Shown: piece by piece, positions 1,828-23,582 of the stretch
Layout of the letters: each line of letters starts with the position of its first letter
How positions within the stretch are numbered: the first letter of the stretch is position 1
Origin: Erysipelotrichaceae bacterium
GTDB taxonomy: Bacteria; Bacillota_I; Bacilli_A; Erysipelotrichales; Erysipelotrichaceae
DNA length: 64,000 nt
Direction of reading: 5' to 3'
NCBI GenBank assembly: GCA_017432545.1
Contig: JAFRJA010000045.1
Coordinates: 3,198-67,197 of the forward strand
The notes under the pieces: generated by a model
Seen by the model: only the letters and a program-made list of their open reading frames with translations
What the model was told of the DNA's origin: nothing
Databases searched by the model: none
Translations under genes and position numbers: made by a program

Positions 1828-4071
1828 ATGTACATTGTTTTTATTATGCTTTCGGTAATAATCATACCGATACTCTATCTCTTCCTGGGACTGCAGATCA
1901 TATCCCTGGGAGACTTTGTAAGATCAGGATTTGAACAGGAATTCAGGATCATCTTTGATATCAGCAGATATAAAGAGTATCCTGATTTTTTGTTTTCGGT
2001 TCTGGCATTGGCTGTACTTACTGTTGTCTCGTTTCTGACGAGCACGGTTTTATCTTCCAGGGCAAGAGCTCAAAGGAAGGTAAGATCATTGACAAGAGAA
2101 GAAAAGAGGCGTGTTTCAAGGATTGCATCCAGGCATGAGGCCAAGAAAGGAACGCAGCGTCTTGAATTCAATACCGAAGGCCAGAACCTTCAAAACAGGA
2201 CTTTTAGAGGAAGTATCGATATTCTGTTTGATCCGATTAAACGCCTCTGGAACAGTCTGATAACGGTTCTGAGATTATCCGATATTCATAAGTTCAATAC
2301 GCTGCATGAGTGGAAGATTGGCGATGAAACAACTAATAGAAGAGGTGGACCTCCGATCATGACTTCCAGAAGAAGGATCTGGGTTGATGCCGCCGATACG
2401 CATTCCCTTGTTGTAGGTACCACCAGATCAGGCAAGACCTTCTCCATCGTCAATATTCTCATACAGTCATTAAGAATGTCTGATGAATCCATGATCGTTA
2501 TGGATGTAAAAGGCGAGCTTTACAAGACACATGGCAAATCGCTGATCGATGACGGATACGATGTCAAAGTCGTTGATTTCATCAATCCTAAGAAGTCTGT
2601 CAGATGGAATCCTTTGGGAATCATCATCAAAAAATACAGGGAAGCATATAACGAATACCAAAGGCAAATGTCAATGCCGGAAAACAGAAACATTGTTGAT
2701 GAGATATCTCAGGACAGGATCCTGATCACTCAGTTCAAAAGGCAGATCGCCAAATCTGACGGCGATCATGATGATCTTTTCAAACAGATAAAGATTCTGG
2801 AAAAGGAGATAGAATCCCTGAACGCAACGCTGCCAAGACCTAACTACTCGGAAGCTGAGGAACTGATATCTGATATTGCTATGAGACTCTGCCATGAAGA
2901 AGATGCCAGAGATCCTTTCTGGTCTTCTTCGGCGACAACGATCCTGGAAGGATACATCAACTTCCTTCTGGAACAGAAGATCAGGGATGAAAACGGAAAG
3001 ATGATGTTTCTTCCCGATGAGATGATCAATATGCGATCGGTCAAGATGCTGCACGATCAGGGAAAGACCTGGATCGATCCGGAGAAGTATGACAACTGCA
3101 GTTCCATTCTGGAATACTTCATAACAAAGAAAAGGAAACAGACGGATCAGTCCTATATGAAGCTGATCGAATTTGTCAGGTCTCCCGACAATACCAGAGG
3201 ATCAATCTCTGCGGTATTCGATGACAAGATCAAATACTTTCTTGCCAATGAGGATATTCTGAATATGACTTCTGTATCGGAATTTGATCTCAAGCAGCTT
3301 GGACAGAAAAAGACTGCGATATTCATCGGAATCCATGACGAAAAAGGAACCTATCATGAACTTCCTTCCATTCTGATCTCACAGACCTATGAGGAGCTGA
3401 TTAAGCTGGCCAGAAATGAAACGGACAATTCAAGACTAAAGGTTCCTGTATATGTAGTATGGGATGAATTCGCCAACGGATCCAGATGGGACAATATCGT
3501 AAATGCTTTGACTGCCGGTTTATCAAGAGGAGTCAGGTTCTGTCTGGTTGTACAGGACTTTGCGCAGCTTAATACCAAATACGGAAAAGACAATGCAGGA
3601 ACGATCCGATCCAACTGTCAGAATCTCTATTATCTGCTTGCTGGAGAATACTCGACTCTGAAGGATGTTTCTGATCTTTGCGGATCAAAGATCATCTGGA
3701 ATCACAACCGGCAGGAAAAGGAAACCGTTCCGTTACTATCGACCGATGCGCTGTCAAAACTGTCGATGGGAGAAGCGGTCATCAAAAGGCAGAGAATGAA
3801 CCCGATCAATACAAGGCTCAGAAGCTTTGACCGGTATGTCTTCAGACTACCTGAAACTCCTGTTCTTCCAGACAGAAGACTTCCAACAGCACAGTTCTTC
3901 AGCATTGATGATGAATTCAAAAAGATAAAGCTAAAAACTGAAGGAAGAATTATTGCTGAAAAGAATCATGAGGAGACTGATGTGAATGACGTTTCAGAAG
4001 ACAGGGTTCCATCGGCAGAAGAAAGAGCCGGTGAGGCCAAAGAAGGAGAGGAGGTAGGTCTGGTTGAATAA
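1828..4071 (+). CDS. type IV coupling protein (TraG/VirD4/TcpA-like conjugal DNA-transfer ATPase)
   Basis: Two N-terminal TM helices, Walker A VVGTTRSGKTFS, MDVKGELY..WNPL, and Walker B-like VYVVWDEFANG. Strong GGAAAGGAG RBS. Confidence 0.8.
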   Translation: MYIVFIMLSVIIIPILYLFLGLQIISLGDFVRSGFEQEFRIIFDISRYKEYPDFLFSVLALAVLTVVSFLTSTVLSSRARAQRKVRSLTREEKRRVSRIASRHEAKKGTQRLEFNTEGQNLQNRTFRGSIDILFDPIKRLWNSLITVLRLSDIHKFNTLHEWKIGDETTNRRGGPPIMTSRRRIWVDAADTHSLVVGTTRSGKTFSIVNILIQSLRMSDESMIVMDVKGELYKTHGKSLIDDGYDVKVVDFINPKKSVRWNPLGIIIKKYREAYNEYQRQMSMPENRNIVDEISQDRILITQFKRQIAKSDGDHDDLFKQIKILEKEIESLNATLPRPNYSEAEELISDIAMRLCHEEDARDPFWSSSATTILEGYINFLLEQKIRDENGKMMFLPDEMINMRSVKMLHDQGKTWIDPEKYDNCSSILEYFITKKRKQTDQSYMKLIEFVRSPDNTRGSISAVFDDKIKYFLANEDILNMTSVSEFDLKQLGQKKTAIFIGIHDEKGTYHELPSILISQTYEELIKLARNETDNSRLKVPVYVVWDEFANGSRWDNIVNALTAGLSRGVRFCLVVQDFAQLNTKYGKDNAGTIRSNCQNLYYLLAGEYSTLKDVSDLCGSKIIWNHNRQEKETVPLLSTDALSKLSMGEAVIKRQRMNPINTRLRSFDRYVFRLPETPVLPDRRLPTAQFFSIDDEFKKIKLKTEGRIIAEKNHEETDVNDVSEDRVPSAEERAGEAKEGEEVGLVE

Positions 4072-5542
4072 TAGAATACTTTGGATGCCTTTAAAACTGA
4101 TGGGCATCTTTTTTATTGTTATATTGCTTTTGATCATACCAATCTGTGCAGTCTTTGCCCCGGTCGTCTATCTTGGCAGCATCTTTGACAATTCCTTTGG
4201 AACACTGAAAGACAATTTTGATATCGATTACGATTCAAACTTCACGGATGAGCTGGATTCCTATATCTATGAAAACAGGATCTCTCCGGACTATAACGGT
4301 ATTACCGGATGTATCTTCTATGAATCGACTGATACGCCAGCAGACTGTCTTTCTTCAATCGATGAAGATGGAAGACTGTCTGAGATCTATGATCATCAGC
4401 AGTTTCTGGATATCGATGAGGATCTTTATATAGGATCTTACGATGATTTCTATTTCGATGAGATCCATGTATTAGGTAAATATACTGTTTCAAAGTACGA
4501 AAAGGTAGGGGAGCATGAAGAAACCAGGCTGGTTGAAAACGCTGGTTCAGGTCCATATACGGGACCTCAATATGAAACAGTCATTGTTGAAGAATACGAC
4601 TGGGTCTACTATCCGGAAATTCAAAGAGGCAAGTGTGAATCGTCGGATACAATTGCCTGCAACATCATCCTGGAAGATAAAGATGTCTATCCCTACCAGA
4701 TGATCACCTTCAACAAGGAATCATCCTTTGGCTTATGTGTTGATCCTGAATCCTATGAGATCTCGTTCAACAGTTATCAGGAATGGTCTGGAGATATGCT
4801 GTATGCATTCTCAAAGGGAACAGTAATATCTGCGAACGGTAAAGAGATCACGCTTCAGATCGATGCCAATGATGTTGATCTTTATGCCAGATATGAATCT
4901 GAGGAAGGATATCTGTCTTCTTTGTTTTCACCAGGTGAAACTGTTGAAGCTGCAGAGACCATTGCCTACTCCGAAGGCAATACCAGACTTTATATCTACA
5001 ACTCCAGAAACGAATATATCAATCCAGCTCTATTTGTTTTTGAGAAGAATTATTATACGGGACTTGGCAACGGAACGATCATTATCGGCATGGAAGACTT
5101 TGCTCCGGACTTTTCCGATACAAGAGTCTGGTATGGCTATGACGATGGCGGCATCAATCCATATGGTGATGATCATATGGGACAGTGCACATGGTTTGCT
5201 TGGGGACTGTTCTATCAGCATTATGGTTTTGATCCGGGATTCAGAGGGAAAGGAGAAAACAGTGCCTATCAGACCTATCAGAATCTGAAAGACCAGGGAT
5301 GGACCTTTTCCAGATCTCCATCACCCGGAGCGGTATTCTCTACTACCAACTTCAATCATGTAGGCATTGTCGCAGGAGTGATCGATGAAGATACCATGAT
5401 CATCGTAGAAGCCAACTTCAATCATAAGAACGATACATTCAAAGAATTCATATCGCTTCCGGATTGGGCAATGAGAGTTGTTTCAACAAAACAGTATAAA
5501 CCGGGAGTAGGATTTATTTACTGCAATCCTCCTCAGGGTTAG
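4064..5542 (+). CDS. membrane-anchored CHAP-domain peptidoglycan hydrolase
   Basis: N-terminal TM segment. The C-terminal region has GQCTWFAWG (catalytic Cys) and NHVGIV..VEANF (His/Glu), as in CHAP amidases. TTG start overlaps the upstream stop after a GGAGG RBS. Confidence 0.75.
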   Translation: MNNRILWMPLKLMGIFFIVILLLIIPICAVFAPVVYLGSIFDNSFGTLKDNFDIDYDSNFTDELDSYIYENRISPDYNGITGCIFYESTDTPADCLSSIDEDGRLSEIYDHQQFLDIDEDLYIGSYDDFYFDEIHVLGKYTVSKYEKVGEHEETRLVENAGSGPYTGPQYETVIVEEYDWVYYPEIQRGKCESSDTIACNIILEDKDVYPYQMITFNKESSFGLCVDPESYEISFNSYQEWSGDMLYAFSKGTVISANGKEITLQIDANDVDLYARYESEEGYLSSLFSPGETVEAAETIAYSEGNTRLYIYNSRNEYINPALFVFEKNYYTGLGNGTIIIGMEDFAPDFSDTRVWYGYDDGGINPYGDDHMGQCTWFAWGLFYQHYGFDPGFRGKGENSAYQTYQNLKDQGWTFSRSPSPGAVFSTTNFNHVGIVAGVIDEDTMIIVEANFNHKNDTFKEFISLPDWAMRVVSTKQYKPGVGFIYCNPPQG

Positions 5543-5573: not shown

Positions 5574-5712
5574 AAGCAGGATAAAGGTTTTGTATACACC
5601 AGGTGTATACAAAACCATCTGAACAACTTGGCTCTGCCAAGTTTTGCCCTTATTTCAAGGGCTTTTTCTAATATTTCAACAAAATAATGAGTGTATACAC
5701 AGGCGTATACAT
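5574..5712 (+). repeat. three-hairpin module, copy 1 (oriT/sso-like or small RNA), plus a second TGTATACA palindrome
   Basis: AAGCAGGATAAA, then GGTTTTGTATACACC-A-GGTGTATACAAAACC (15-bp stem), CTTGGC-TCT-GCCAAG, and GCCCTT-ATTTC-AAGGGC followed by TTTTT. A further palindrome GTGTATACACAGGCGTATACA follows. Near-identical copy at 16217-16354. Confidence 0.7.
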
Positions 5713-5714
5713 TT

Positions 5715-5775
5715 CCAACTTGTAGCAAGTTGCTACAAGTTGGTTTGATGTAGTTGTAGAAAGTTGCTACAAGTT
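5715..5775. promoter_or_regulatory. second pair of TTGTAGCAA/TTGCTACAA palindromes upstream of the RHH-relaxase operon
   Basis: Perfect 29-bp palindrome CCAACTTGTAGCAA-G-TTGCTACAAGTTGG at 5715-5743. Imperfect copy at 5751-5775. Confidence 0.6.
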
Positions 5776-5791: not shown

Positions 5792-6250
5792 ATGTCAAAT
5801 AACAATAACGTGATAACTGTCAGATTGGACGGTGACTGTCTGACAAAACTTGATAAGCTTCTGGAGTTTGAAAAGGTTGAAGCAAGAAGAATCAAAAAAC
5901 CAGAAGGAAGAAAGAAGGATATTATCGAAGAAGCGATCAGGGATCTTTATTACAAGAAGATAAACAAAACTCATGATGCCGATGTCGTAGGAAGGATCTC
6001 ACAGACCGTAGATGACAAAGTGAATGCCTCGATGAACAATCTACATGGCAAGATCGACCAGATCCTGTATCTGGTGAACAAGCTGGATCTGGGAACCAAA
6101 GTACTCTACAGAAGTCCGAGCGTTATGCCTGCGCCTAAGGATGTTGAACAGGCCATAAGAATTATCACAAACGAAGAATCGAAATGGTACAACGCTGTAG
6201 AGGAGATAATGACCAGCAACATCAAGAAGAAAGATGAAGGGGAAGAATAA
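5792..6250 (+). CDS. ribbon-helix-helix protein (relaxosome accessory/regulator candidate)
   Basis: N-terminus VITVRLDGDCLTKLDKLL fits an RHH beta-strand plus helix. The stop overlaps the downstream start (TAATG). Confidence 0.55.
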   Translation: MSNNNNVITVRLDGDCLTKLDKLLEFEKVEARRIKKPEGRKKDIIEEAIRDLYYKKINKTHDADVVGRISQTVDDKVNASMNNLHGKIDQILYLVNKLDLGTKVLYRSPSVMPAPKDVEQAIRIITNEESKWYNAVEEIMTSNIKKKDEGEE

Positions 6251-7461
6251 TGCCGGATCTTTTCTGCAAGGTAAGATATTTCAGAATCGGACAGGATGCA
6301 CCGAAGAACAGCTGCTTCAAGGGAACCGTAACACCGAAGTCGATATTCGGTGGATCCGGTTCTTATTTTGATTATTGTGAACGATATGTTGATAAGGAAA
6401 ACAAATCCCTGATGAGCTATACCGGAAGATATGGATATACCATGACTTCCGAAGGATATCTTGATACCAAAGAGAAATCAGAAGAATTCAAGATCAAAGG
6501 AACGGAAGCATTGAATAAACCTGGAGCAGTTCTTTATGAATTTGTTGTCAGTATGCCTGACTATGATCGGGCAAACAACTATAATCTTGCATCACAGGAA
6601 CAGTTCGCTCCGGTAATATCGAATATCATGCCGGTATATCTCAAATCCATAGGCCTTGATCCAAATAATGTTTCCTGGTGGGAAGACTTTCATCCGGAGA
6701 ACAGGACCAGCGTAACACCGCATCCTCATATCCATCTTCTTTTCTTTGAGAATGAACCTTCCGGAACATTCGATCAGTCCTATGGAAAGCTTCCAAAAAA
6801 AGCGATAGACAAGTTCAAGAATCTTTTCGGAAACGAAATGTTGAAAAGAGAAGACCAGGGAATATATCGAGATCTTTTCAGAAACATCAATGAATCCAGA
6901 AAATATGTTCTTGATAATCTCAAGCATACCGATCTTAGTAAGGTAAAGTCTCTGAAAGATCTGTACGCAATTCTACCAAAATCGGGAAGACTGCAGATCA
7001 ATTCTGCCAATATGGCTCCATACAGGGAAACGGTATTCAGAGTCGTTGATGATCTTCTTGGTTCAAAGGAATGCAAAGAAACCTGGGATAAGTATTTATC
7101 ATCATTGGATCGATATGAAAGAAGAATCAATGTTAAATCAAGTCAGTCTGTTTCACAAAGGAAGGAAATGGAAATCTCAAAACTTAAGGATCAGATCGCA
7201 AACTATATTCTTTCCAACCGGAAGGGATACATTTCAGAGAATTCATACGACAGCATATTGAAAAATAGAAACTATAAGTTGTCTGATGGAAGCCAGGGGA
7301 TAGTTTATAAGAACAGTTCTATTGTAAGAGGTAGACTCTCCACAAGAAACTCAACTGTCTCAACGAAAAGAGCAATCAATGGTTTGGTTGCCAAAAGGCA
7401 AAGGGAGATTGAAAGGGAGATCGATATGTATCTGAACCAGGGAAGAGGTATGAGCATGTAA
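6250..7461 (+). CDS. putative relaxase/mobilization protein (histidine-triad type)
   Basis: FHPENRTSVTPHPHIHLLFFE resembles the H-x-(D/E)...PHxH metal-binding motif of MOBQ/MOBP-like relaxases. N-terminal Tyr-containing region. Sits beside the RHH gene, coupling protein and hairpin module. Confidence 0.5.
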   Translation: MPDLFCKVRYFRIGQDAPKNSCFKGTVTPKSIFGGSGSYFDYCERYVDKENKSLMSYTGRYGYTMTSEGYLDTKEKSEEFKIKGTEALNKPGAVLYEFVVSMPDYDRANNYNLASQEQFAPVISNIMPVYLKSIGLDPNNVSWWEDFHPENRTSVTPHPHIHLLFFENEPSGTFDQSYGKLPKKAIDKFKNLFGNEMLKREDQGIYRDLFRNINESRKYVLDNLKHTDLSKVKSLKDLYAILPKSGRLQINSANMAPYRETVFRVVDDLLGSKECKETWDKYLSSLDRYERRINVKSSQSVSQRKEMEISKLKDQIANYILSNRKGYISENSYDSILKNRNYKLSDGSQGIVYKNSSIVRGRLSTRNSTVSTKRAINGLVAKRQREIEREIDMYLNQGRGMSM

Positions 7462-7533
7462 TGATGCACTGCAATTGATTATAAGTGTTACTTTCATTAT
7501 TTCTTGCCTGTTAGCATATAAATAGGAGGAATT

Positions 7534-7605
7534 ATGGTTTTACACATACAGGGCGGACAACCGGTATCGCTGATAGGGTGCCTGCTGTTTTGGATGAAAG
7601 TCTAA
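7534..7605 (+). CDS. candidate 23-aa leader peptide (MVLHIQGGQPVSLIGCLLFWMKV)
   Basis: Strong AGGAGGA RBS 5 nt upstream of the ATG. Its 3' codons and stop lie inside a terminator stem. Confidence 0.35.
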   Translation: MVLHIQGGQPVSLIGCLLFWMKV

Positions 7606-7630
7606 AACGGCAGCCCCTTTTTGTTTTCTT
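7582..7630 (+). terminator. attenuator-type terminator overlapping the leader ORF end
   Basis: CTGCTGTTTT / AAAACGGCAG 10-bp stem followed by CCCCTTTTTGTTTT. A further hairpin GGTTTGGCA..TGCCAAAC lies at about 7648-7700. Confidence 0.5.
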
Positions 7631-7824
7631 GATGGTTTTACGGCAGGGTTTGGCAAGTTCTATATAGAGCAAACATGTATTTGCTGCCAAACTAAACTTG
7701 CAAAAGCAATTTTTTCTTGTTTTTACAAAATTTTATACAAAAAAGTACTATTTTCGGGTTTTCCGCTCGTTCTGTGTAAGTGAAGGGACCAGAAATTCCT
7801 TTGTTTACTAAGGAGGTAAAAGCA

Positions 7825-8253
7825 GTGGAAAATAATCTGAATTTGGAAGATATTTCTAAGCAATACGATTCATACATTAAGAAGACCATCAGGAACTTTA
7901 AAGCTGATTACATCAGAAAAAATGCAAGCAGATGGGAAAACGAACTATATCTGGAAGAATTGCCGTTTGCCAAAAGGGAAGATCTGATGAAAGACGAAAC
8001 AGTCAGTGATAATGAAAAAATGTATGTGGTTAACGGGAGATTAATCACAAAAGAGATGATTCATAAAGCACTGAATCTTCTTCCGGAAAAGAAATCGGTC
8101 GTCATCAAACTTCATTATTTTGACAATCTTAATGAAGATAAGATAGCAGAGCAGCTAGGTCTATCCCAAGAAGGTGTCAGCAAAAGAATAAGGACAGCAT
8201 TAAAGATACTGATGGAAATATTTGAGGATATCGGTGATGGCGAATGCATCTAA
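7825..8253 (+). CDS. sigma-70 family (region 4) transcription factor, Tn916 orf7-like
   Basis: AAGGAGG RBS then GTG at 7825. C-terminal NEDKIAEQLGLSQEGVSKRIRTALKIL is a sigma region 4.2 HTH. Confidence 0.7.
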   Translation: MENNLNLEDISKQYDSYIKKTIRNFKADYIRKNASRWENELYLEELPFAKREDLMKDETVSDNEKMYVVNGRLITKEMIHKALNLLPEKKSVVIKLHYFDNLNEDKIAEQLGLSQEGVSKRIRTALKILMEIFEDIGDGECI

Positions 8254-8491
8254 CCATCATCATCGGAAATATGGTGAACCGGATGGAAAGCTTGTAATAG
8301 CAGCTGTATCTGGAGATCGGGAAGCAATGCTTTCAATCCTCGATTTTTATAAAGGTTATATTAGTTCGGTGGCTATCATCAAATACAAAATTCAGAATAG
8401 CACTGAAAAAGATTTCTATGATGAGGAATTTCATAAAGATTTACTTCAGAAAGTGATTGAAGCAACTCATAAATTCCGCATCAAAAGATAA
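8237..8491 (+). CDS. conjugative-transposon HTH protein, Tn916 orf8-like
   Basis: AAVSGDREAMLSILDFYKGYISSVA matches the helix-turn-helix conjugative-transposon-like small proteins that follow orf7-type sigma genes. Confidence 0.6.
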   Translation: MANASNHHHRKYGEPDGKLVIAAVSGDREAMLSILDFYKGYISSVAIIKYKIQNSTEKDFYDEEFHKDLLQKVIEATHKFRIKR

Positions 8492-8520
8492 AACCTAAAC
8501 CACAAAAAACGTTTAGTATT

Positions 8521-8852
8521 AGTTCTTTGAAAATAGAATAGTAAGTGGTACGGACAACATCCCCGCTGCAGGAGAGCCAAACCGGAACATGCGCGATGAC
8601 TCCTATATATAAACAGGAAGAGCGGAAAACATGAATGCCGGAAGATGGAATTGGGTGTTCCATCGGCGAAGATCTGCAGCGAATATAATGATACTCCCCT
8701 ATAGTCATAATCCTGAGCGTTAGAAGCGTCGCACGAATTGAGTAGGGTTGGATGAGAACCATGCAATTGACTGGGTTACCGCGTAGCTGTCTGAAATGGC
8801 AGGGTACGGTTTTCTGGCCTAGTGGGCTTTTCCCGAAAGCCGTCCGGTACAC
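8521..8852. ncRNA. candidate large structured RNA (unclassified; strand unresolved)
   Basis: About 330 bp, clearly GC-richer than its flanks, with no credible ORF. Long-range pairings: GTAC-GGAC (8549-8556) with GTCC-G-GTAC (8842-8850), and CGCTGCAG (8563-8570) with CTGCAGCG (8674-8681). Local hairpins: GATGGAA/TTCCATC, CTGTC/GGCAG, GGCTTT/AAAGCC. Confidence 0.4.
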
Positions 8853-8879
8853 TATAAATAATCCGATTTAGCAAAGTTT

Positions 8880-9587
8880 TTATATATCTAAAGAGGATCG
8901 CCTTTTAGTAACATAATGTTTTTTTAATTCCTGGTTTTTTTTCGCAGATACAGAATCAAAAAGAACATAACTGATATCGACTTTATTGCCCAAATTGCTG
9001 AAGGTTATTCTGCTGATCTTATCGAAGACATGGCGATCATCTTCGCTGTTGTTGTCTAGAACAAAGCGTACTTCGGCAATGCTTTCTTCATCCGGAATAT
9101 TTTCTATGAAAGAAGACTCAGAGTAAATGACTTCTATCAGTCCGCAAATATCATTATTATCTTTAATGGCAGAAACATATTTCTCTTTATGGTAATTACC
9201 GATAAGAACTTTGCCGAACATGGAAGACGGATACCAGAAAGCTCCATCAAAATAGATTTCACGCTTATTATAGCCGATTATACTGATAAAAGGATTTATT
9301 TCTGAACCGTTTACCCATTTGTTAGAAAGATAACGGGCATTTGTTTCGTTGAATTGTTTTGCATTGCTTTTTTCTGTATCGCCGAAAAAGCAATTATAAG
9401 CAGCATCACGGATATCATCTCCTGAAAGATTTACTATTTTTTGAAAAACACCAAACCTCGGCATTTCTGTTCTTCCTTTTTCCAGATTTCTTACCTGAGA
9501 TAAGGAAATATCAAGAAGTTCCGACATTTCTCTTTGAGACAGTTTCAGTTTTTTACGAAGTTTTGTTAAGTATGGTGATATTGACAT
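8880..9587 (-). CDS. XRE-family HTH regulator with uncharacterised C-terminal domain (orf9-like repressor position)
   Basis: N-terminal LKLSQREMSELLDISLSQVRNLEKGRT is an XRE HTH. The gene is divergent from xis-int. Confidence 0.75.
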   Translation of the reverse strand: MSISPYLTKLRKKLKLSQREMSELLDISLSQVRNLEKGRTEMPRFGVFQKIVNLSGDDIRDAAYNCFFGDTEKSNAKQFNETNARYLSNKWVNGSEINPFISIIGYNKREIYFDGAFWYPSSMFGKVLIGNYHKEKYVSAIKDNNDICGLIEVIYSESSFIENIPDEESIAEVRFVLDNNSEDDRHVFDKISRITFSNLGNKVDISYVLFDSVSAKKNQELKKHYVTKRRSSLDI

Positions 9588-9647
9588 TGCTATCCTTCTG
9601 AAATCAATTATATCAATTTAGATATAATTTTACTGTCATGGATTAAT

Positions 9648-9676
9648 TTGACACTCGAATACATGAATGAGATAAT
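9648..9676 (+). promoter_or_regulatory. sigma-A type promoter facing xis-int of element A
   Basis: TTGACA, 17 nt spacer, GATAAT. Confidence 0.5.
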
Positions 9677-9723
9677 TAATACGTTAATAAAAATAAATAA
9701 AATAAAATAGCAAAATTAACACA

Positions 9724-9929
9724 AGTTCTTTGAAAAACAGCCATCATGGCTTATATCGGTAATTGCACACATGGATTCTGTATCAACTGATGCGATCGCA
9801 TTGATCCTTACGGATTGCGGACAAATCAAAATTCAGTCAAAGGAATCGCTACTTGCTCAGGAACAGCGTGCGGCCTAAACAGCACCGGTGAAACTCCGAT
9901 GGCCCCTATAAAGGGACATGCAATTACTT
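9724..9929 (+). ncRNA. long structured 5' leader of xis-int (candidate cis-regulatory RNA)
   Basis: Starts with the same 13-mer AGTTCTTTGAAAA as 8521-8533. Closing stem GTAATTGCA (9759-9767) with TGCAATTAC (9921-9929). Internal palindrome ATGCGATCGCAT. No ORF. Confidence 0.3.
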
Positions 9930-9974
9930 TGTCATCAACAATTAATATACAGTTTATAGAAAGGAATCAGACAT

Positions 9975-10253
9975 ATGAAAAAAATAACCTGGGGTGAAAA
10001 GGTAGATATGATATTGATCTACCCGCACGTCACCATCAGGCAGATCGAGGCTTTATTTGGCATTGGTCAGCCTTCAGCCATGGAACTGCGTGATAAAGCG
10101 CTTAAACTGGCTGAAAAAGAGGGCAGGTGGACAGTGAGCAAGAAAGCTCCGACTGATCTGGTGATTAAGGCGGCTGGCCTAGATTATGACTATTTCAGAA
10201 ATATGGCGATGAAAGAATCTGTAGCAAGATCAGGGAAGAATCAAAGGAACTGA
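9975..10253 (+). CDS. excisionase-like small DNA-binding protein (paralog at 23313-23582)
   Basis: 92 aa, located immediately upstream of the integrase. Clearly homologous to the element B protein (ITWxEKxDMxxxYP...GQPSA...DYDYF). Confidence 0.6.
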   Translation: MKKITWGEKVDMILIYPHVTIRQIEALFGIGQPSAMELRDKALKLAEKEGRWTVSKKAPTDLVIKAAGLDYDYFRNMAMKESVARSGKNQRN

Positions 10254-10256
10254 TCT

Positions 10257-11669
10257 GTGTATAACAGAGTCATCTATGAACTGACTCAAAAGAAAACAAG
10301 TGAATATACTCTGCAGGATAAGCTTACAGAAAAGCAGGAACTTGATAGATACAGGAGAAATCGTGTCCCGATCTATCCTTATGTTTTCAAAAAGGAGATC
10401 TATTTCAGGATCGTATTCAGGAATAAGACGATCAGGGGATTCAGCAACTTTGAAAAAGCGGAAGAAAGCTATCAGAGGCTGTTGAATGGTGAAACAATGG
10501 TCAAAGATGCTCAAAAAGAACTGAAACAGGAAAAGATAAATGCAAATGTTTCTCTTGCAGATGGATTTGAGGTTCTTCTCAAGAAACATGCAGCAGCCTA
10601 TCAAAACGGTGAACTGAAATATTCCGCTTATTCCAAAAAAGACTCCACAATCAGAATTCACATCATTCCTTATTTCAAGGAAAAGCCGATAGCCGAGATC
10701 ACGAAGGGAGATATCGCTAGGTTTGTACATCATATCCGTTCGGAAGAGATATCCGGAAAAACAGGAAAGAAAGGAAAGCAAAAACAGCTGTCTGTTTCTA
10801 TGCAGCATGAAGTACTGATGTATTTCAAAATGCTCTACAAGGAGACGGTGAGATGGTTTGATATCGAAACTTCAATCGACATTGACAGAGAAGTGGAAAT
10901 GCCAAAGATGTCCAAATCACGCAAGCAGTACAACAGAGAGGTATCAGAAAAAATCAACGGAGACTATGAGAAGAATGCAAAGATGATTATGGAGGAACTT
11001 TCCAAACTTGAATATGGGATCTATCATCCGGCATTCGGAATACAGCTATTGATCAGTTGCACCGGTATGAGGATAAATGAAGCAAATGCTCTGAAGCCGT
11101 CAAAATTCGATTATGAAAAAAAGACGCTTTTAATCGACAGGAACATTTCTTGGCATCCTAACAAGAAGAGAACTAAGAAGTCCTATGAAGAAACATCGAC
11201 CAAGACCGATACGGAAAGAACGATACTGCTGCCCGATTCAATAGCGGAATATCTGAAATCGTATATTGATAGATTGAAACAGCTCACTTTCTATTCGGAT
11301 GATATGTACATCTTCTCAAGACTTGGTCTGGCAAGAAATACAAGCATGATTCTTGATCCGTTCTCTCTCAAGTCTTTCGACAATATCTTAAAAAGGATAT
11401 ACAAGGATCTTAATCTTAATCCTGATGAAGAGGATAATAAAAAGGATAAGAACCATCTAGCTAGGCACGCCTTCAATACGTTGCTGAAGAACGAACATAT
11501 CGAGGAGTATGATAGAAAGCTATATCTTGGTCATTCTACCGGTTCGGGCGTCAATGAGGGCTATACCCATGGATCGCCTGAGGAAGAAAGAAGGATCGTC
11601 GAAGCGGCAGAAAGATACTGTAATTACCTTACAGAGGGAATTTCCGAGTTTAAACTGATGAAAAAATAG
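10257..11669 (+). CDS. tyrosine recombinase/integrase of element A
   Basis: C-terminal HLARHAFNTLL ... LGHS ... GYTH (R-H-R-Y catalytic pattern). Paralog of 23587-24987. Confidence 0.85.
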   Translation: MYNRVIYELTQKKTSEYTLQDKLTEKQELDRYRRNRVPIYPYVFKKEIYFRIVFRNKTIRGFSNFEKAEESYQRLLNGETMVKDAQKELKQEKINANVSLADGFEVLLKKHAAAYQNGELKYSAYSKKDSTIRIHIIPYFKEKPIAEITKGDIARFVHHIRSEEISGKTGKKGKQKQLSVSMQHEVLMYFKMLYKETVRWFDIETSIDIDREVEMPKMSKSRKQYNREVSEKINGDYEKNAKMIMEELSKLEYGIYHPAFGIQLLISCTGMRINEANALKPSKFDYEKKTLLIDRNISWHPNKKRTKKSYEETSTKTDTERTILLPDSIAEYLKSYIDRLKQLTFYSDDMYIFSRLGLARNTSMILDPFSLKSFDNILKRIYKDLNLNPDEEDNKKDKNHLARHAFNTLLKNEHIEEYDRKLYLGHSTGSGVNEGYTHGSPEEERRIVEAAERYCNYLTEGISEFKLMKK

Positions 11670-11670
11670 G

Positions 11671-11782
11671 CAATCTTGTCAAAAACTTGTCAGTTTTTTC
11701 CGGACCGGAAATGCAAAAAAGTCAGGAAAAATCGAGGTTTTCCGCACTTTGAAAGAATGCAATCTTGTCAAAATCTTGTCAT
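11671..11782 (+). repeat. arm-type direct repeats of element A (CAATCTTGTCAAAAnCTTGTCA, two copies)
   Basis: Copies at 11671-11693 and 11760-11782, each a tandem CTTGTCA heptad, about 80-190 bp from the att repeat. Confidence 0.55.
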
Positions 11783-11858
11783 TTTTTGCAAAAAACAGGT
11801 TTTCTGCCAAGGTAAAACATTAAAAAAGTGCCCATTTTTAGGCACTTTTGAAGATTTC

Positions 11859-11875
11859 TGGCTGCGGATGAAGGA
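11859..11875. repeat. att direct repeat: duplicated 3' end of tRNA-Gln (junction between elements A and B)
   Basis: TGGCTGCGGATGAAGGA is identical to 25004-25020 (tRNA CCA end, acceptor and T-arm). Confidence 0.85.
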
Positions 11876-12022
11876 GACTCTATAATCCTCTTTCCTTTAT
11901 CTCAGCTTAGAAACGAAATAATCCCATATGTTTATTGCAAGCCTTTAAAATAAGGCTTTTTTGAGATTGATTTCAAAACGTTTGTAAACGTTACTAATCA
12001 ATAAAAAACATACAAAAAAGTC

Positions 12023-12045
12023 AAATCTTGCAGAAATCTTGCAGA
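12023..12045 (+). repeat. arm-type repeat of element B, left end (AAATCTTGCAGAAATCTTGCAGA)
   Basis: Identical 23-mer at 24932-24954, inside the 3' end of the int B coding region. Confidence 0.6.
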
Positions 12046-12064
12046 TTTTTACGAGAAGAATCCT

Positions 12065-12892
12065 ATGGAAAAAGAGAAGAGAGTTAGATCCGGGTCAAAG
12101 AGATACTACTGGATGAGACTGAAAGCGGATTTCTTTGAAAGCCCCGAGATCAGAAAGCTGAGGAAGCTTGCCGGCGGAGACACCTACACCATCATTTATC
12201 TGAAGATGATGCTCAAGACGATCACCAATGGCGGAGTGTTTGTCTATTCGGGGATCGAGGATACTTTCGAAAAGGAAGTGGCCCTGATCATCGATGAGGA
12301 TGAAAACAATGTCATGATGACGATTGCCTACCTTAGGAAGCATAATCTGCTGGAGGAAGGATGTTCAGAGAACGCATATCTTCTGAACGCCGTACCGGAA
12401 CTGATCGGATCGGAGACAGCGGATGCAGAGAGAAAAAGGATCGCACGTTCCATGGATCCTGAAGTGGTCGCTGAGATCGCTGCCAATGATGATGTGGCGG
12501 ACAATGTCCGCCAATTGTCCGAAAATGTCCGCCAATTGTCCGACAGAGAAGAACAGAACAGAATAGAACAGAACAGAAAAGAGATAGATATAGACCAGAA
12601 CAAGAACAGAGTACAGAAAGTGATCGCTGACACCTTTTCAAGTGATCCTGAAGGCTCTGAAGATCTGGCCTGGACTGTCACCAGGAAGATGAATGGCGAG
12701 CAGTACGCTGCATTTTACTCGCTGATGGAGAAGATGAAACGAGGTGAGATCAAAACTTCCAAAGATAATCTTTACCGGTATTTCAATAAGCTGGCTGAAA
12801 GAGACTGGAAAGATTCCAATGGCGTACCTATCAAGGATCTGGTCAAATATGTGCAGACCAATTTTGCCTTGAACGGCAAATCGCTTAACTGA
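12065..12892 (+). CDS. phage/plasmid replisome organizer-like replication protein
   Basis: N-terminus YYWMRLKADFFESPEIRKLRKLAGGDTYTIIYLKMML resembles the phage replisome organizer N-terminal domain. The central part is low-complexity. Confidence 0.6.
   Translation: MEKEKRVRSGSKRYYWMRLKADFFESPEIRKLRKLAGGDTYTIIYLKMMLKTITNGGVFVYSGIEDTFEKEVALIIDEDENNVMMTIAYLRKHNLLEEGCSENAYLLNAVPELIGSETADAERKRIARSMDPEVVAEIAANDDVADNVRQLSENVRQLSDREEQNRIEQNRKEIDIDQNKNRVQKVIADTFSSDPEGSEDLAWTVTRKMNGEQYAAFYSLMEKMKRGEIKTSKDNLYRYFNKLAERDWKDSNGVPIKDLVKYVQTNFALNGKSLN
12497..12620. repeat. iteron-like repeats inside the replication gene (candidate origin)
   Basis: AATGTCCGCCAATTGTCCGA occurs twice (12503-12522 and 12524-12543). 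Palindrome GGCGGACA-A-TGTCCGCC. A run of GAACA pentamers at about 12550-12580 is followed by an AT-rich GAGATAGATATAGA stretch. Confidence 0.45.
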
Positions 12893-23210: not shown

Positions 23211-23312
23211 TAACGGTCTTTGACAAATAGCCCGAATCAGGGCTCATATGCCTAGGCACAACAAATTAGCAAGAACTATATAATAGTAAGCTTTGCGGAA
23301 AGGAAAAAGAAA

Positions 23313-23582
23313 ATGAACAGAATAACGTGGAAAGAAAAAGCCGACATGGTGATCATGTATCCCCAAATCAGTCTGAAACAGATTCAGAAACTGTTGGGAG
23401 TAGGACAACCTTCTGCCATTCAGATCAGGGATCAGGCACTGAAGCTTGCGAAAAAGAACGGAAGATGGGTAGGGGATAAAAAGGTTCCGACTGATCTTTT
23501 ACTTGAAGCCGTCGGTCTTGACTATGACTATTTCAAGAAAATGGCTAAGCAAGAGTATCTCTCCAGCAAAGAACAGTTCTAA
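23313..23582 (+). CDS. excisionase-like small DNA-binding protein (element B)
   Basis: Paralog of 9975-10253. GGAAAGGAAAAAG RBS. Confidence 0.6.
   Translation: MNRITWKEKADMVIMYPQISLKQIQKLLGVGQPSAIQIRDQALKLAKKNGRWVGDKKVPTDLLLEAVGLDYDYFKKMAKQEYLSSKEQF

Follow-up and report, generated by a model that had tools for sequence, protein, structure and literature searches.

What is a block of DNA without any plausible gene doing between the regulatory genes and the excision genes of an integrative element? We addressed this question for an element lying in a 64,000-nt stretch (hereafter the window; its genome is G000) of contig JAFRJA010000045.1, assembly GCA_017432545.1, from an Erysipelotrichaceae bacterium; all coordinates are positions in the window. 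A first-pass annotation, made from the sequence letters, had singled out positions 8521-8852, downstream of two sigma-factor-like genes and upstream of an excisionase-integrase (xis-int) gene pair, as a candidate large non-coding RNA that could be matched to no RNA family. This last point has to be given up: the block has a sub-threshold match to the Rfam motif pemK and is homologous to canT of Tn916. Judged by sequence comparison, it is a diverged member of the canT/pemK class and not a new RNA class, and its host element is of a different kind. We consider it probable that the block is a full-length, though diverged, canT-class RNA that acts in cis within a long transcript running from the sigma-factor genes towards xis-int.

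canT was reported in 2024 as essential for the conjugation of Tn916, with its structure and host partners left open (Wirachman and Grossman 2024, PMC11658703). According to the part of that report available to us, on which all our statements about it are based, canT is the region from +126 to +577 after orf8, required for conjugation and for transcription past the terminator T1. Combined with foreign promoters and terminators it is sufficient by itself, acting in one orientation only, in cis and processively, and it is active from a chromosomal reporter without any Tn916 protein. It also acts at a distance on heterologous and on multiple terminators, and excision is unaltered in canT mutants. 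Its authors state that fold predictions fail to explain their fragment data, and comparative analysis was not pursued; in the same part of the report, the terms pemK, Rfam, covariation, boxA and NusB do not occur. Likewise, pemK is absent from the main text of Weinberg et al. 2017 (PMC5737381), as far as that text was available. The extended structure described below, the equation of pemK with canT and the boxA do not appear in the literature that we searched, the supplement of Weinberg et al. 2017, which possibly covers the flanks of the motif, being outside that search.

Homology to pemK and to Tn916 canT

Using Rfam models with permissive filters in a 3-kb search, we found a match to the pemK RNA (RF02913) at 8685-8774 on the + strand, with 31.1 bits and an E value of 0.0049. 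The match takes in all 61 positions of the model, that is, the core AUAAUGAUAC, the hairpin P1 in its long-insert form and the hairpin P2. At the gathering threshold the whole window yields two tRNAs and nothing else, and the Rfam families present in the window and in the loci of its relatives are pemK, SQ2397, tRNA and weak chance families only. From the 200 other genomes of the family that were searched, 15 match the block, solely at 8683-8765 and with 74-84% identity. Among the 22 relative loci of this family search, pemK RNA was present in all 19 that were scanned with Rfam (L003-L021, L022-L024 being outside that scan), with scores of 53.4-63.4 bits. A class-wide scan with RF02913 gave matches above the cut-off in 11 of 150 other genomes.

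The same stretch was matched in 31 plasmid records, 28 of them from Enterococcus, and in two phage records, and its identity to plasmid-borne copies of Tn916 is 81.0-81.7% over 81-83 nt. On pCF10, the match sits in the Tn916 copy, between orf8 and the excisionase gene, overlapping a ‘hypothetical protein’ on the opposite strand that corresponds to orf5. In one other plasmid, tndX lies downstream of the matching RNA; in the relatives, the RNA is followed by a Tn916-type xis-int or by a large serine recombinase. A leave-one-out nhmmer profile built from 27 relatives, Tn916 rows included, matched 8522-8765 with an E value of 1.5e-30, the sole strong match in the 64-kb window, and a profile of the 5' domain only matched 8522-8675 with an E value of 6.7e-7.

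Composition, coding potential and pairings of the block

The first-pass annotation had described the block as GC-richer than its surroundings and devoid of plausible open reading frames (ORFs), and both descriptions are accurate. The GC fraction is 0.445-0.46 in 200-nt windows over 8500-8899, versus 0.26-0.37 in the flanks (0.33 at 8300-8499, 0.36 at 8800-8999 and 0.26 at 9500-9699). The + strand carries ORFs of 30-39 aa only, and the - strand has one of 123 aa (8481-8852), which spans the block, and one of 99 aa, both without Pfam matches. Nor is any frame consistently held open among 27 relatives, in a count over the block that left out L040: the three - frames are stop-free in 0, 1 and 2 of the 27, and each + frame in none.

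Two long-range pairings had been proposed to close the block. Both are present, and their 3' strands had been located exactly (GTCCGGTAC at 8842-8850 and CTGCAGCG at 8674-8681), while the positions of their 5' strands need a correction of one nucleotide: GTACGGAC is at 8548-8555 and not at 8549-8556, and CGCTGCAG is at 8564-8571 and not at 8563-8570. The two helices were recovered in an unconstrained minimum free energy fold. The three local hairpins exist as drawn, at 8644-8664 (GATGGAA/TTCCATC), 8787-8802 (CTGTC/GGCAG) and 8825-8841 (GGCTTT/AAAGCC), and the first 13 nt of the block, 8521-8533, do recur exactly at 9724-9736. Besides, the heptamer GGTACGG occurs twice in the block (8547-8553 and 8803-8809), so the 3' strand at 8842-8850 has two possible partners, its distant 5' strand and the copy close by, which could reflect either an alternative fold or a mere duplication scar.

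Architecture of the extended RNA

We compared the block with its relatives in two alignments, a first one of orf8-to-xis spacers (the window and 16 distinct relatives) and a second one, A1, made with MAFFT from 28 sequences. The latter includes 15 loci from the class-wide scan, four near-identical rows out of 32 distinct ones having been left out. In these comparisons the conserved unit is seen to be about 300 nt long and not 61 nt; it is closed by two covarying long-range helices, H1 and H2, which are the very pairings that the first-pass annotation had proposed, and the Rfam model covers its 3' third only. From 5' to 3', the unit consists of the box GUUCUUUGAmAA, the 5' strand of H1, uACgU, the 5' strand of H2, GAGCC, CGCCAUGAC, the hairpin Pb, GCGAGCGA, the hairpin Pc, GCnAyGAC, the 3' strand of H2, AUAAUGAUAC, the hairpins P1-P4 and the 3' strand of H1. 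The motifs of the inner domain in the window align in A1 with the family consensus GAGCC, CGCCAUGAC and GCGAGCGA (Table 1).

In the window, H1 comprises eight pairs (4+4) around one bulged G, to which 8545/8852 and 8546/8851 are added if G8547 is bulged too, and H2 comprises eight Watson-Crick pairs and one G-U pair; Pc has 7 bp and is perfect. In the relatives, a single hairpin, P4, follows P3 and abuts H1. The aligned place of P3 in the window holds only GGGUUACC-GCGU, and P3 amounts to 2 nt in the Rfam alignment; the hairpin at 8787-8802, with its UGAAAU loop, could be a displaced P3, or P4. As for P2, the same G-G mismatch is found at its fourth pair in the window (8751/8763) and in L029, L030 and L028, relatives of different subgroups, and may be a conserved non-canonical pair.

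Covariation of the helices and the folded strand

The long-range helices were tested in registers defined by conserved anchors, using 22 of the 28 rows of A1 (the near-duplicates L005, L013, L012, L021 and L008 were dropped, as was L002, whose anchor is unaligned). For H2, the 11 positions after uACgU were set against the 11 positions before AUAAUGAUAC. Cognate strands paired at 8.23 of 11 positions, compared with 5.15 (standard deviation 1.75) for non-cognate strands; the cognate total was reached in 0 of 20000 partner permutations, and there were 20 distinct strand sequences among the 22. Four sequences (L039, L031, L042 and L041) pair poorly in this fixed register, with 2-5 of 11. For H1, the 10 nt before the anchor were set against the best offset within 40 nt after P3, and cognate strands paired at 8.50 of 10 positions versus 6.79 (standard deviation 1.06) for non-cognate ones, again with 0 of 20000 permutations as good; owing to bulges, the gapless count is only 6-7 of 10 in the window and in five others.

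In the unfitted alignment, 69.1% of the cells of H2, P1, P2 and P3 taken together were paired, compared with 55.6 +/- 1.2 in shuffles, and the covariation score was 0.313 versus 0.140 in shuffles (0 of 500), with slid controls at 0.085-0.197. Regarding the individual hairpins in A1, the outer pairs of P1 are 97.1% paired, five out of five having changed on both sides, and P2 is 79.1% paired, with both sides changed in six of its seven pairs. Pc recurs with differing stems just 5' of the GCnAyGAC motif in most of 23 folded sequences, and Pb is variable in sequence and size, its segment being a single nucleotide in two of the 23 (L035 and L037). G-U pairs exceed A-C mismatches in the H2 cells by 38 to 12, which makes the + strand the folded strand.

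According to these results, both long-range helices covary among homologous elements. The initial proposal of a large structured RNA in the excision-control region is upheld, the RNA lying on the + strand where excision and transfer are controlled, and the closing helices and hairpins being its conserved, covarying parts. Its designation as a free-standing non-coding RNA gene is not, since by homology the RNA would be a cis-acting piece of a long mRNA leader.

The shared 13-mer as a boxA

In ribosomal RNA (rrn) operons, boxA is the sequence that loads NusB-S10 onto the polymerase. The 13-mer at the start of the block, AGTTCTTTGAAAA, matches the rrn boxA of related genomes; this comparison covers three genomes of the same family, 16S not being assembled in the genome of the window (0 matches). 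The exact 12-mer flanks both 16S genes of the complete genome G034, at 79 nt on the upstream side and 80 nt on the downstream side, and one-mismatch versions, GGUCUUUGAAAACUAAACAGG and GAUCUUUGAAAACUGAAUAACAG, stand in the leaders and spacers of the rrn operons in G076 and G092. The spacer box even continues like the 5' end of canT, with CUGAAUAA. The 13-mer also fits the boxA-like consensus of Bacillus subtilis rrn operons, AUGAUCUUUGAAA, which binds NusB, as shown for the rrnO box in the part of the source at hand (PMC13753749). Of 31 distinct pemK loci, 26 match the box in at least 10 of its 12 positions, at a distance of 143-210 nt 5' of the core, and the remaining five match it in 8-9 of 12; control windows gave 2 of 29 and 1 of 31. 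The shared 13-mer is thus best read, from these sequence matches, as a boxA. Exact copies of the 13-mer are also found on contigs C41, C76 and C101 of the same genome (L071, L073 and L075), where near-identical copies stand just after promoter-like sequences, some 190-250 nt from the contig ends. These may be leaders of rRNA operons that broke the assembly, and no Rfam matches were found in the three box regions.

One could argue that the 13-mer is instead a promoter's -35 element (TTGAAA/TTGACA), such as that of the weak Pxis named in the legend of the Tn916 map (PMC11658703, Fig 1), and that the folded domain is the 5' leader of its own transcript. The hexamer inside the box would indeed make a good -35 element. 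Moreover, by our count the active 452-bp fragment of Tn916 begins at TTGAAAAC, inside the box and without its first 5 nt, so that the box would be dispensable for antitermination from a foreign promoter. What is lacking is the rest of a promoter: a conserved -10 element is absent at 16-18 nt, and immediately behind the box one subgroup carries an insertion of 27 nt and others a hairpin. Further, relatives carry the 12-mer together with CUGAAUAA in their 16S-23S spacers, and these are no promoters, and the second copy in the window lies 48 nt 3' of the best promoter-like site and hence would be transcribed. A further idea, that the orf7/orf8 sigma factor targets the box as its promoter, was rejected, there being no close match upstream of orf7 in Tn916. 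This absence, along with that of a conserved -10 element, makes a promoter less likely, and we regard the -35 explanation as improbable, although it is the best placed of the alternatives.

Tn916 mutations on the shared architecture

The only two tyrosine codons of orf5 (in the pCF10 copy) are, on the + strand, the AUA triplets at positions 1-3 and 7-9 of AUAAUGAUAC. canT(S3), an inactivating AUA-to-UGC change, was designed to alter an orf5 tyrosine (PMC11658703, in the part available). Since both codons fall inside AUAAUGAUAC, this mutation hits one of the two AUA triplets in the invariant head of the pemK motif, and the sequence that it targets is intact in the window copy. An old Tn5 insertion at codon 41 of orf5 maps to the P2 loop, GAGAAC.

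The Tn916 data also bear on the possibility that the RNA is a local regulator, such as a riboswitch or an attenuator, that tunes xis-int to a ligand or a protein and is no processive antiterminator. Rfam does class pemK as a cis-regulatory element, and the duplicated GGUACGG, by giving the 3' strand of H1 alternative partners, has a switch-like look. Yet Tn916 canT acts on several distant, heterologous terminators and its mutants excise as before, as described above from the available part of PMC11658703; the block is not followed by any hairpin plus U-run resembling a terminator, and the repeated heptamer falls in a part without relatives. We therefore hold a local regulator to be quite unlikely.

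Still less likely is that the folded strand acts as single-stranded DNA, for instance as a single-strand origin (sso) after rolling-circle transfer. Covariation cannot separate RNA from single-stranded DNA, a caveat voiced in the accessible text of PMC5737381, and Tn916, which uses rolling-circle replication, possesses an sso. However, the same map legend (PMC11658703, Fig 1) shows sso916 and canT as two separate features, canT is orientation-specific relative to the promoter in a reporter without Tn916 protein, and the box at the 5' end corresponds to a signal that rRNA operons use as RNA. Just as improbable is a reading of the block as a remnant in decay or as an orf5-equivalent small protein gene on the - strand: the 123-aa ORF across the block, the sub-threshold pemK score and the aberrant P3 would suit it, but neither - strand ORF has a family match, no frame stays open in relatives, start-codon and stop mutants of Tn916 orf5 conjugate normally, its protein being dispensable (PMC11658703, same part), and boxA and AUAAUGAUAC are exact and neither the 8 bp of H2 nor the 7 bp of Pc contain a mismatch, where decay predicts otherwise.

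Second leader and other xis leaders

The second copy of the 13-mer opens another leader, directly before xis-int. It consists of the boxA (9724-9736), a hairpin at 9739-9751, a closing helix and a P3-like CGGUGAAACUCCG at 9886-9898, and it has GGAAUCGCUAC in place of AUAAUGAUAC. The closing helix was among the claims of the first-pass annotation: it is there, with its 5' strand at 9759-9767 as claimed, and its 3' strand is at 9919-9927 instead of 9921-9929. An Rfam scan of this leader, suggested by the same annotation, gave no pemK match even at E values up to 10, and the family profile search with nhmmer gave none either. Its similarity to Tn916 canT is not significant (98 of 500 shuffles as good), and no homologs were found in 200 family genomes, where only short AT-rich matches with E values of 2e-5 or weaker turned up. 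Its 3' part does resemble L002, with a local score of 43 versus 22.0 +/- 3.6 in shuffled sequences (0 of 1000) and stems that differ compensatorily. From sequence and layout, we describe the second leader as canT-like but more diverged, and we do not count it as a pemK/canT member. L002 (G000:C89:237-497), with 33.9 bits, is another pemK RNA of this genome that scores close to the threshold; a boxA of its own lies 161 nt upstream, it has a closing helix, and it precedes a 330-aa gene.

Paralogs of the xis-like gene precede genes of other elements in the same genome. Four of five xis-like paralogs there have the box (at least 11 of 12 positions) 78-250 nt upstream, three of them with the box followed by a 5-bp hairpin, the stems differing. 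In the neighbouring element B, a one-mismatch boxA, GGTCTTTGACAA, is followed by a 5-bp hairpin, AGCCC/GGGCT (23215-23250), 98 nt upstream of a xis-like gene that starts at 23313 and shares 56% identity with its counterpart at 9975. The paralog on contig C30 has the box-plus-hairpin layout, and the one on C176 a bare box.

Gene neighbourhood

The features of the locus are collected in Table 1. The order of the orf7-like and orf8-like genes upstream of the block is that of Tn916 on pCF10. For the XRE protein, one relative was located, a distant one with 39% identity. The promoter-like site at 9648-9676 is divergent from the XRE gene, and the second boxA starts 48 nt downstream of it. Further upstream in the element lie transfer genes, encoding VirD4 (1828-4071), a CHAP hydrolase (4064-5542) and a MobP3-like relaxase (6250-7461), with terminator-like sites on the + strand at 5646-5662, 5715-5743 and 7582-7613.

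Directly 3' of the integrase gene there are two copies of a 36-nt repeat (11663-11698 and 11752-11787), 86% identical, which may be recombinase arm sites or mark the element end. Another RNA motif, SQ2397 (RF03532, ‘cis-regulator of HTH transcription factor’), was found with 214-230 bits in the leader upstream of orf7 in five of 20 scanned sources. These are the Tn916-type loci L003, L004, L008, L009 and L010, where it lies about 1.2-1.4 kb 5' of the pemK RNA; three further loci gave weak matches of 37-44 bits, and the Rfam scan found no SQ2397 match upstream of the sigma gene of the window.

Table 1. Features of the locus, in window coordinates; HTH, helix-turn-helix
Feature	Position	Strand	Basis or remark
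Sigma-70 region 4 protein gene, orf7/sig7-like	7780-8253	+	Pfam PF08281, PF04545; NCBIfam sigma70-ECF
HTH_16 protein gene, orf8/sig8-like	8222-8491	+	Pfam PF12645
Folded RNA block, the whole candidate canT-like element (boxA plus closed domain)	8521-8852	+	Profile match; closing helix reaches to 8852; flanked by the orf8-like HTH_16 gene and the convergent XRE gene
boxA-like 13-mer AGUUCUUUGAAAA	8521-8533	+	Identity with rrn boxes of relatives
Closing helix H1, 5' strand GUGGUACGGAC	8545-8555	+	Pairs with 8842-8852; permutation test
Linker AACAU between H1 and H2 (family consensus uACgU)	8556-8560	+	A and C are (nearly) invariant columns of A1
Helix H2, 5' strand CGCUGCAGG	8564-8572	+	Pairs with 8673-8681
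Inner domain, first half	8574-8626	+	GAGCC 8574-8578; GCGCGAUGAC 8591-8600; Pb 8601-8618; AGAGCGGA 8619-8626
Hairpin Pc (GAUGGAA/UUCCAUC)	8644-8664	+	Followed by conserved GGCGAAGAUC, 8665-8674
Helix H2, 3' strand UCUGCAGCG	8673-8681	+	Fixed-register test
Invariant AUAAUGAUAC, start of the pemK motif	8685-8694	+	Rfam alignment and invariant columns of A1; exact
P1, long form with GAGCGUU..GCGUCGC insert	8696-8747	+	Rfam alignment, A1
P2, loop AGAAC	8748-8766	+	Rfam alignment, A1
Diverged 3' part	8767-8841	+	Hairpins 8787-8802 (CUGUC/GGCAG, loop UGAAAU) and 8825-8841 (GGCUUU/AAAGCC)
Closing helix H1, 3' strand GUCCGGUACAC	8842-8852	+	Permutation test
XRE-family HTH gene, convergent	8880-9587	-	Pfam HTH_19, HTH_3
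Promoter-like site, sigma-70-type TTGACA-17-GATAAT with TG	9648-9676	+	11 of 12 matches, top score within 7400-12100
Second boxA-led leader	9724-9927	+	Inside the 387-nt leader preceding the xis-like gene
xis-like gene, 92 aa	9975-10253	+	Protein without family match
Tyrosine integrase gene	10257-11669	+	Pfam Phage_integrase, Phage_int_SAM_3

Discussion

The most likely function of the block, in our analysis, would be to make the polymerase resistant to terminators, allowing transcripts to extend into xis-int and, in the excised element, into the transfer genes. Our comparison shows homology, an architecture that covaries, the folded strand and a 13-mer identical to the rrn boxA of relatives. 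From these we infer that this copy is active, that its boxA recruits Nus factors in this host and that the transcript takes the following path. A transcript starting upstream of the sigma-like genes would present the boxA as the RNA emerges. The RNA would then fold into a domain of about 300 nt, closed by H1 and H2 and bearing the pemK core AUAAUGAUAC, P1 and P2. By remaining attached to its own polymerase, the folded RNA would confer terminator resistance, and transcription would proceed antisense through the XRE gene and on through the second leader and xis-int. Once the element is excised and circularised, it would continue across the joint into the genes for VirD4, the CHAP hydrolase and the MobP-type relaxase, past the internal terminator-like sites.

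Several observations weigh against this view. Some concern the match itself. The pemK score of 31.1 bits is below the gathering cut-off of 34.8, and the match is not reported at that threshold; the aberrant P3 and the inserted nucleotides account for this low score. The window has about 58 extra nt before H1, and the near-invariant P3 loop GGUGArAUUCC, with the GUGA after it, is missing or displaced, which may have changed or abolished activity. A close relative of this variant was found neither in the 200 family genomes nor in one genome-collection scan and one metagenome scan; an exact 22-mer had 0 matches in the genome collection and one in the metagenome collection, not alignable beyond the 22-mer. 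As the inserted parts have no relatives, covariation cannot test them. The profile of the 5' domain, once its box columns are removed, finds nothing with nhmmer, which indicates that outside the box this domain is conserved mainly as structure and short motifs.

Others concern folding and function. The fold is no stabler than that of shuffled sequences: for the + strand the z score is -1.41, with 9 of 100 shuffles folding equally well, and for the - strand it is -1.02, with 14 of 100, and the case rests, in consequence, on the comparison with relatives. On the raw MAFFT alignment, H2 alone is 51.6% paired, the stronger figures coming from our own anchor-based registers, and RNAalifold recovers P3 only; the helices shift register, which is why anchor-based tests replaced it. 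The active Tn916 fragment, which by our count starts within the box, implies that a complete boxA is not required in that reporter. Finally, a convergent XRE gene stands between the RNA and xis, unlike in Tn916.

How does the window RNA compare with known systems? It shares with Tn916 canT the strand and the place, after the orf7/orf8 homologs and before xis-int, as well as boxA, H1, H2, Pb, Pc, AUAAUGAUAC, P1 and P2, and it is overlapped by an ORF on the opposite strand, as canT is by orf5. It differs in that its element has a MobP-type relaxase, no tet(M) in view and transfer genes that are not Tn916-like, and in having an XRE gene and a second boxA leader before xis, a lost or displaced P3 and some 58 added nt. 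With the pemK motif it has in common AUAAUGAUAC, P1 and P2 with a GAGAAC-type loop, in that order. Its 13-mer is the leader and spacer box of rrn operons in relatives; unlike there, the box is joined to a 300-nt closed domain without an rrn counterpart, and the role of Nus factors is putative. The nut site of phage lambda is made of boxA and the hairpin boxB, and the 5-bp hairpin that stands behind the box in the second copy and in two other xis leaders gives these a similar layout. Processive antiterminators that rely on RNA, alone or assisted, include HK022 put, B. subtilis EAR and pLS20 conAn2 (PMC11658703, in the part available). As is proposed for the window RNA, these are cis-acting structured RNAs in the leader of a long operon that lead the polymerase to ignore terminators, and they differ from it in size and fold.

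A broader reading is possible, which we advance tentatively and are slightly more inclined to doubt than to accept. canT-class RNAs and the widespread pemK motif may be composite nut-like signals, in which a host rRNA-type boxA recruits NusB-S10 and the domain of about 300 nt takes the role of lambda N or boxB. Conjugative elements of Bacillota would thus borrow rRNA antitermination, coupling the expression of transfer genes to excision. The element studied here would have two such signals in tandem, one fed by the sigma module and one by the promoter beside the XRE repressor gene, and bare boxA-plus-hairpin sites would serve the xis-like genes of other elements in this genome.

For the window itself the result is more modest, one further and rather diverged copy in a rumen-type Bacillota element. 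The comparison that it led to gives a covariation-supported outline of the RNA, with a boxA, two closing helices, two inner hairpins and the pemK core; it links a functionally uncharacterised Rfam motif, pemK, to a measured function, and it names a concrete candidate host factor, NusB-S10 acting via boxA. Since Tn916-family elements spread resistance to tetracycline and other resistances, the way in which their transfer genes are switched is of practical weight.

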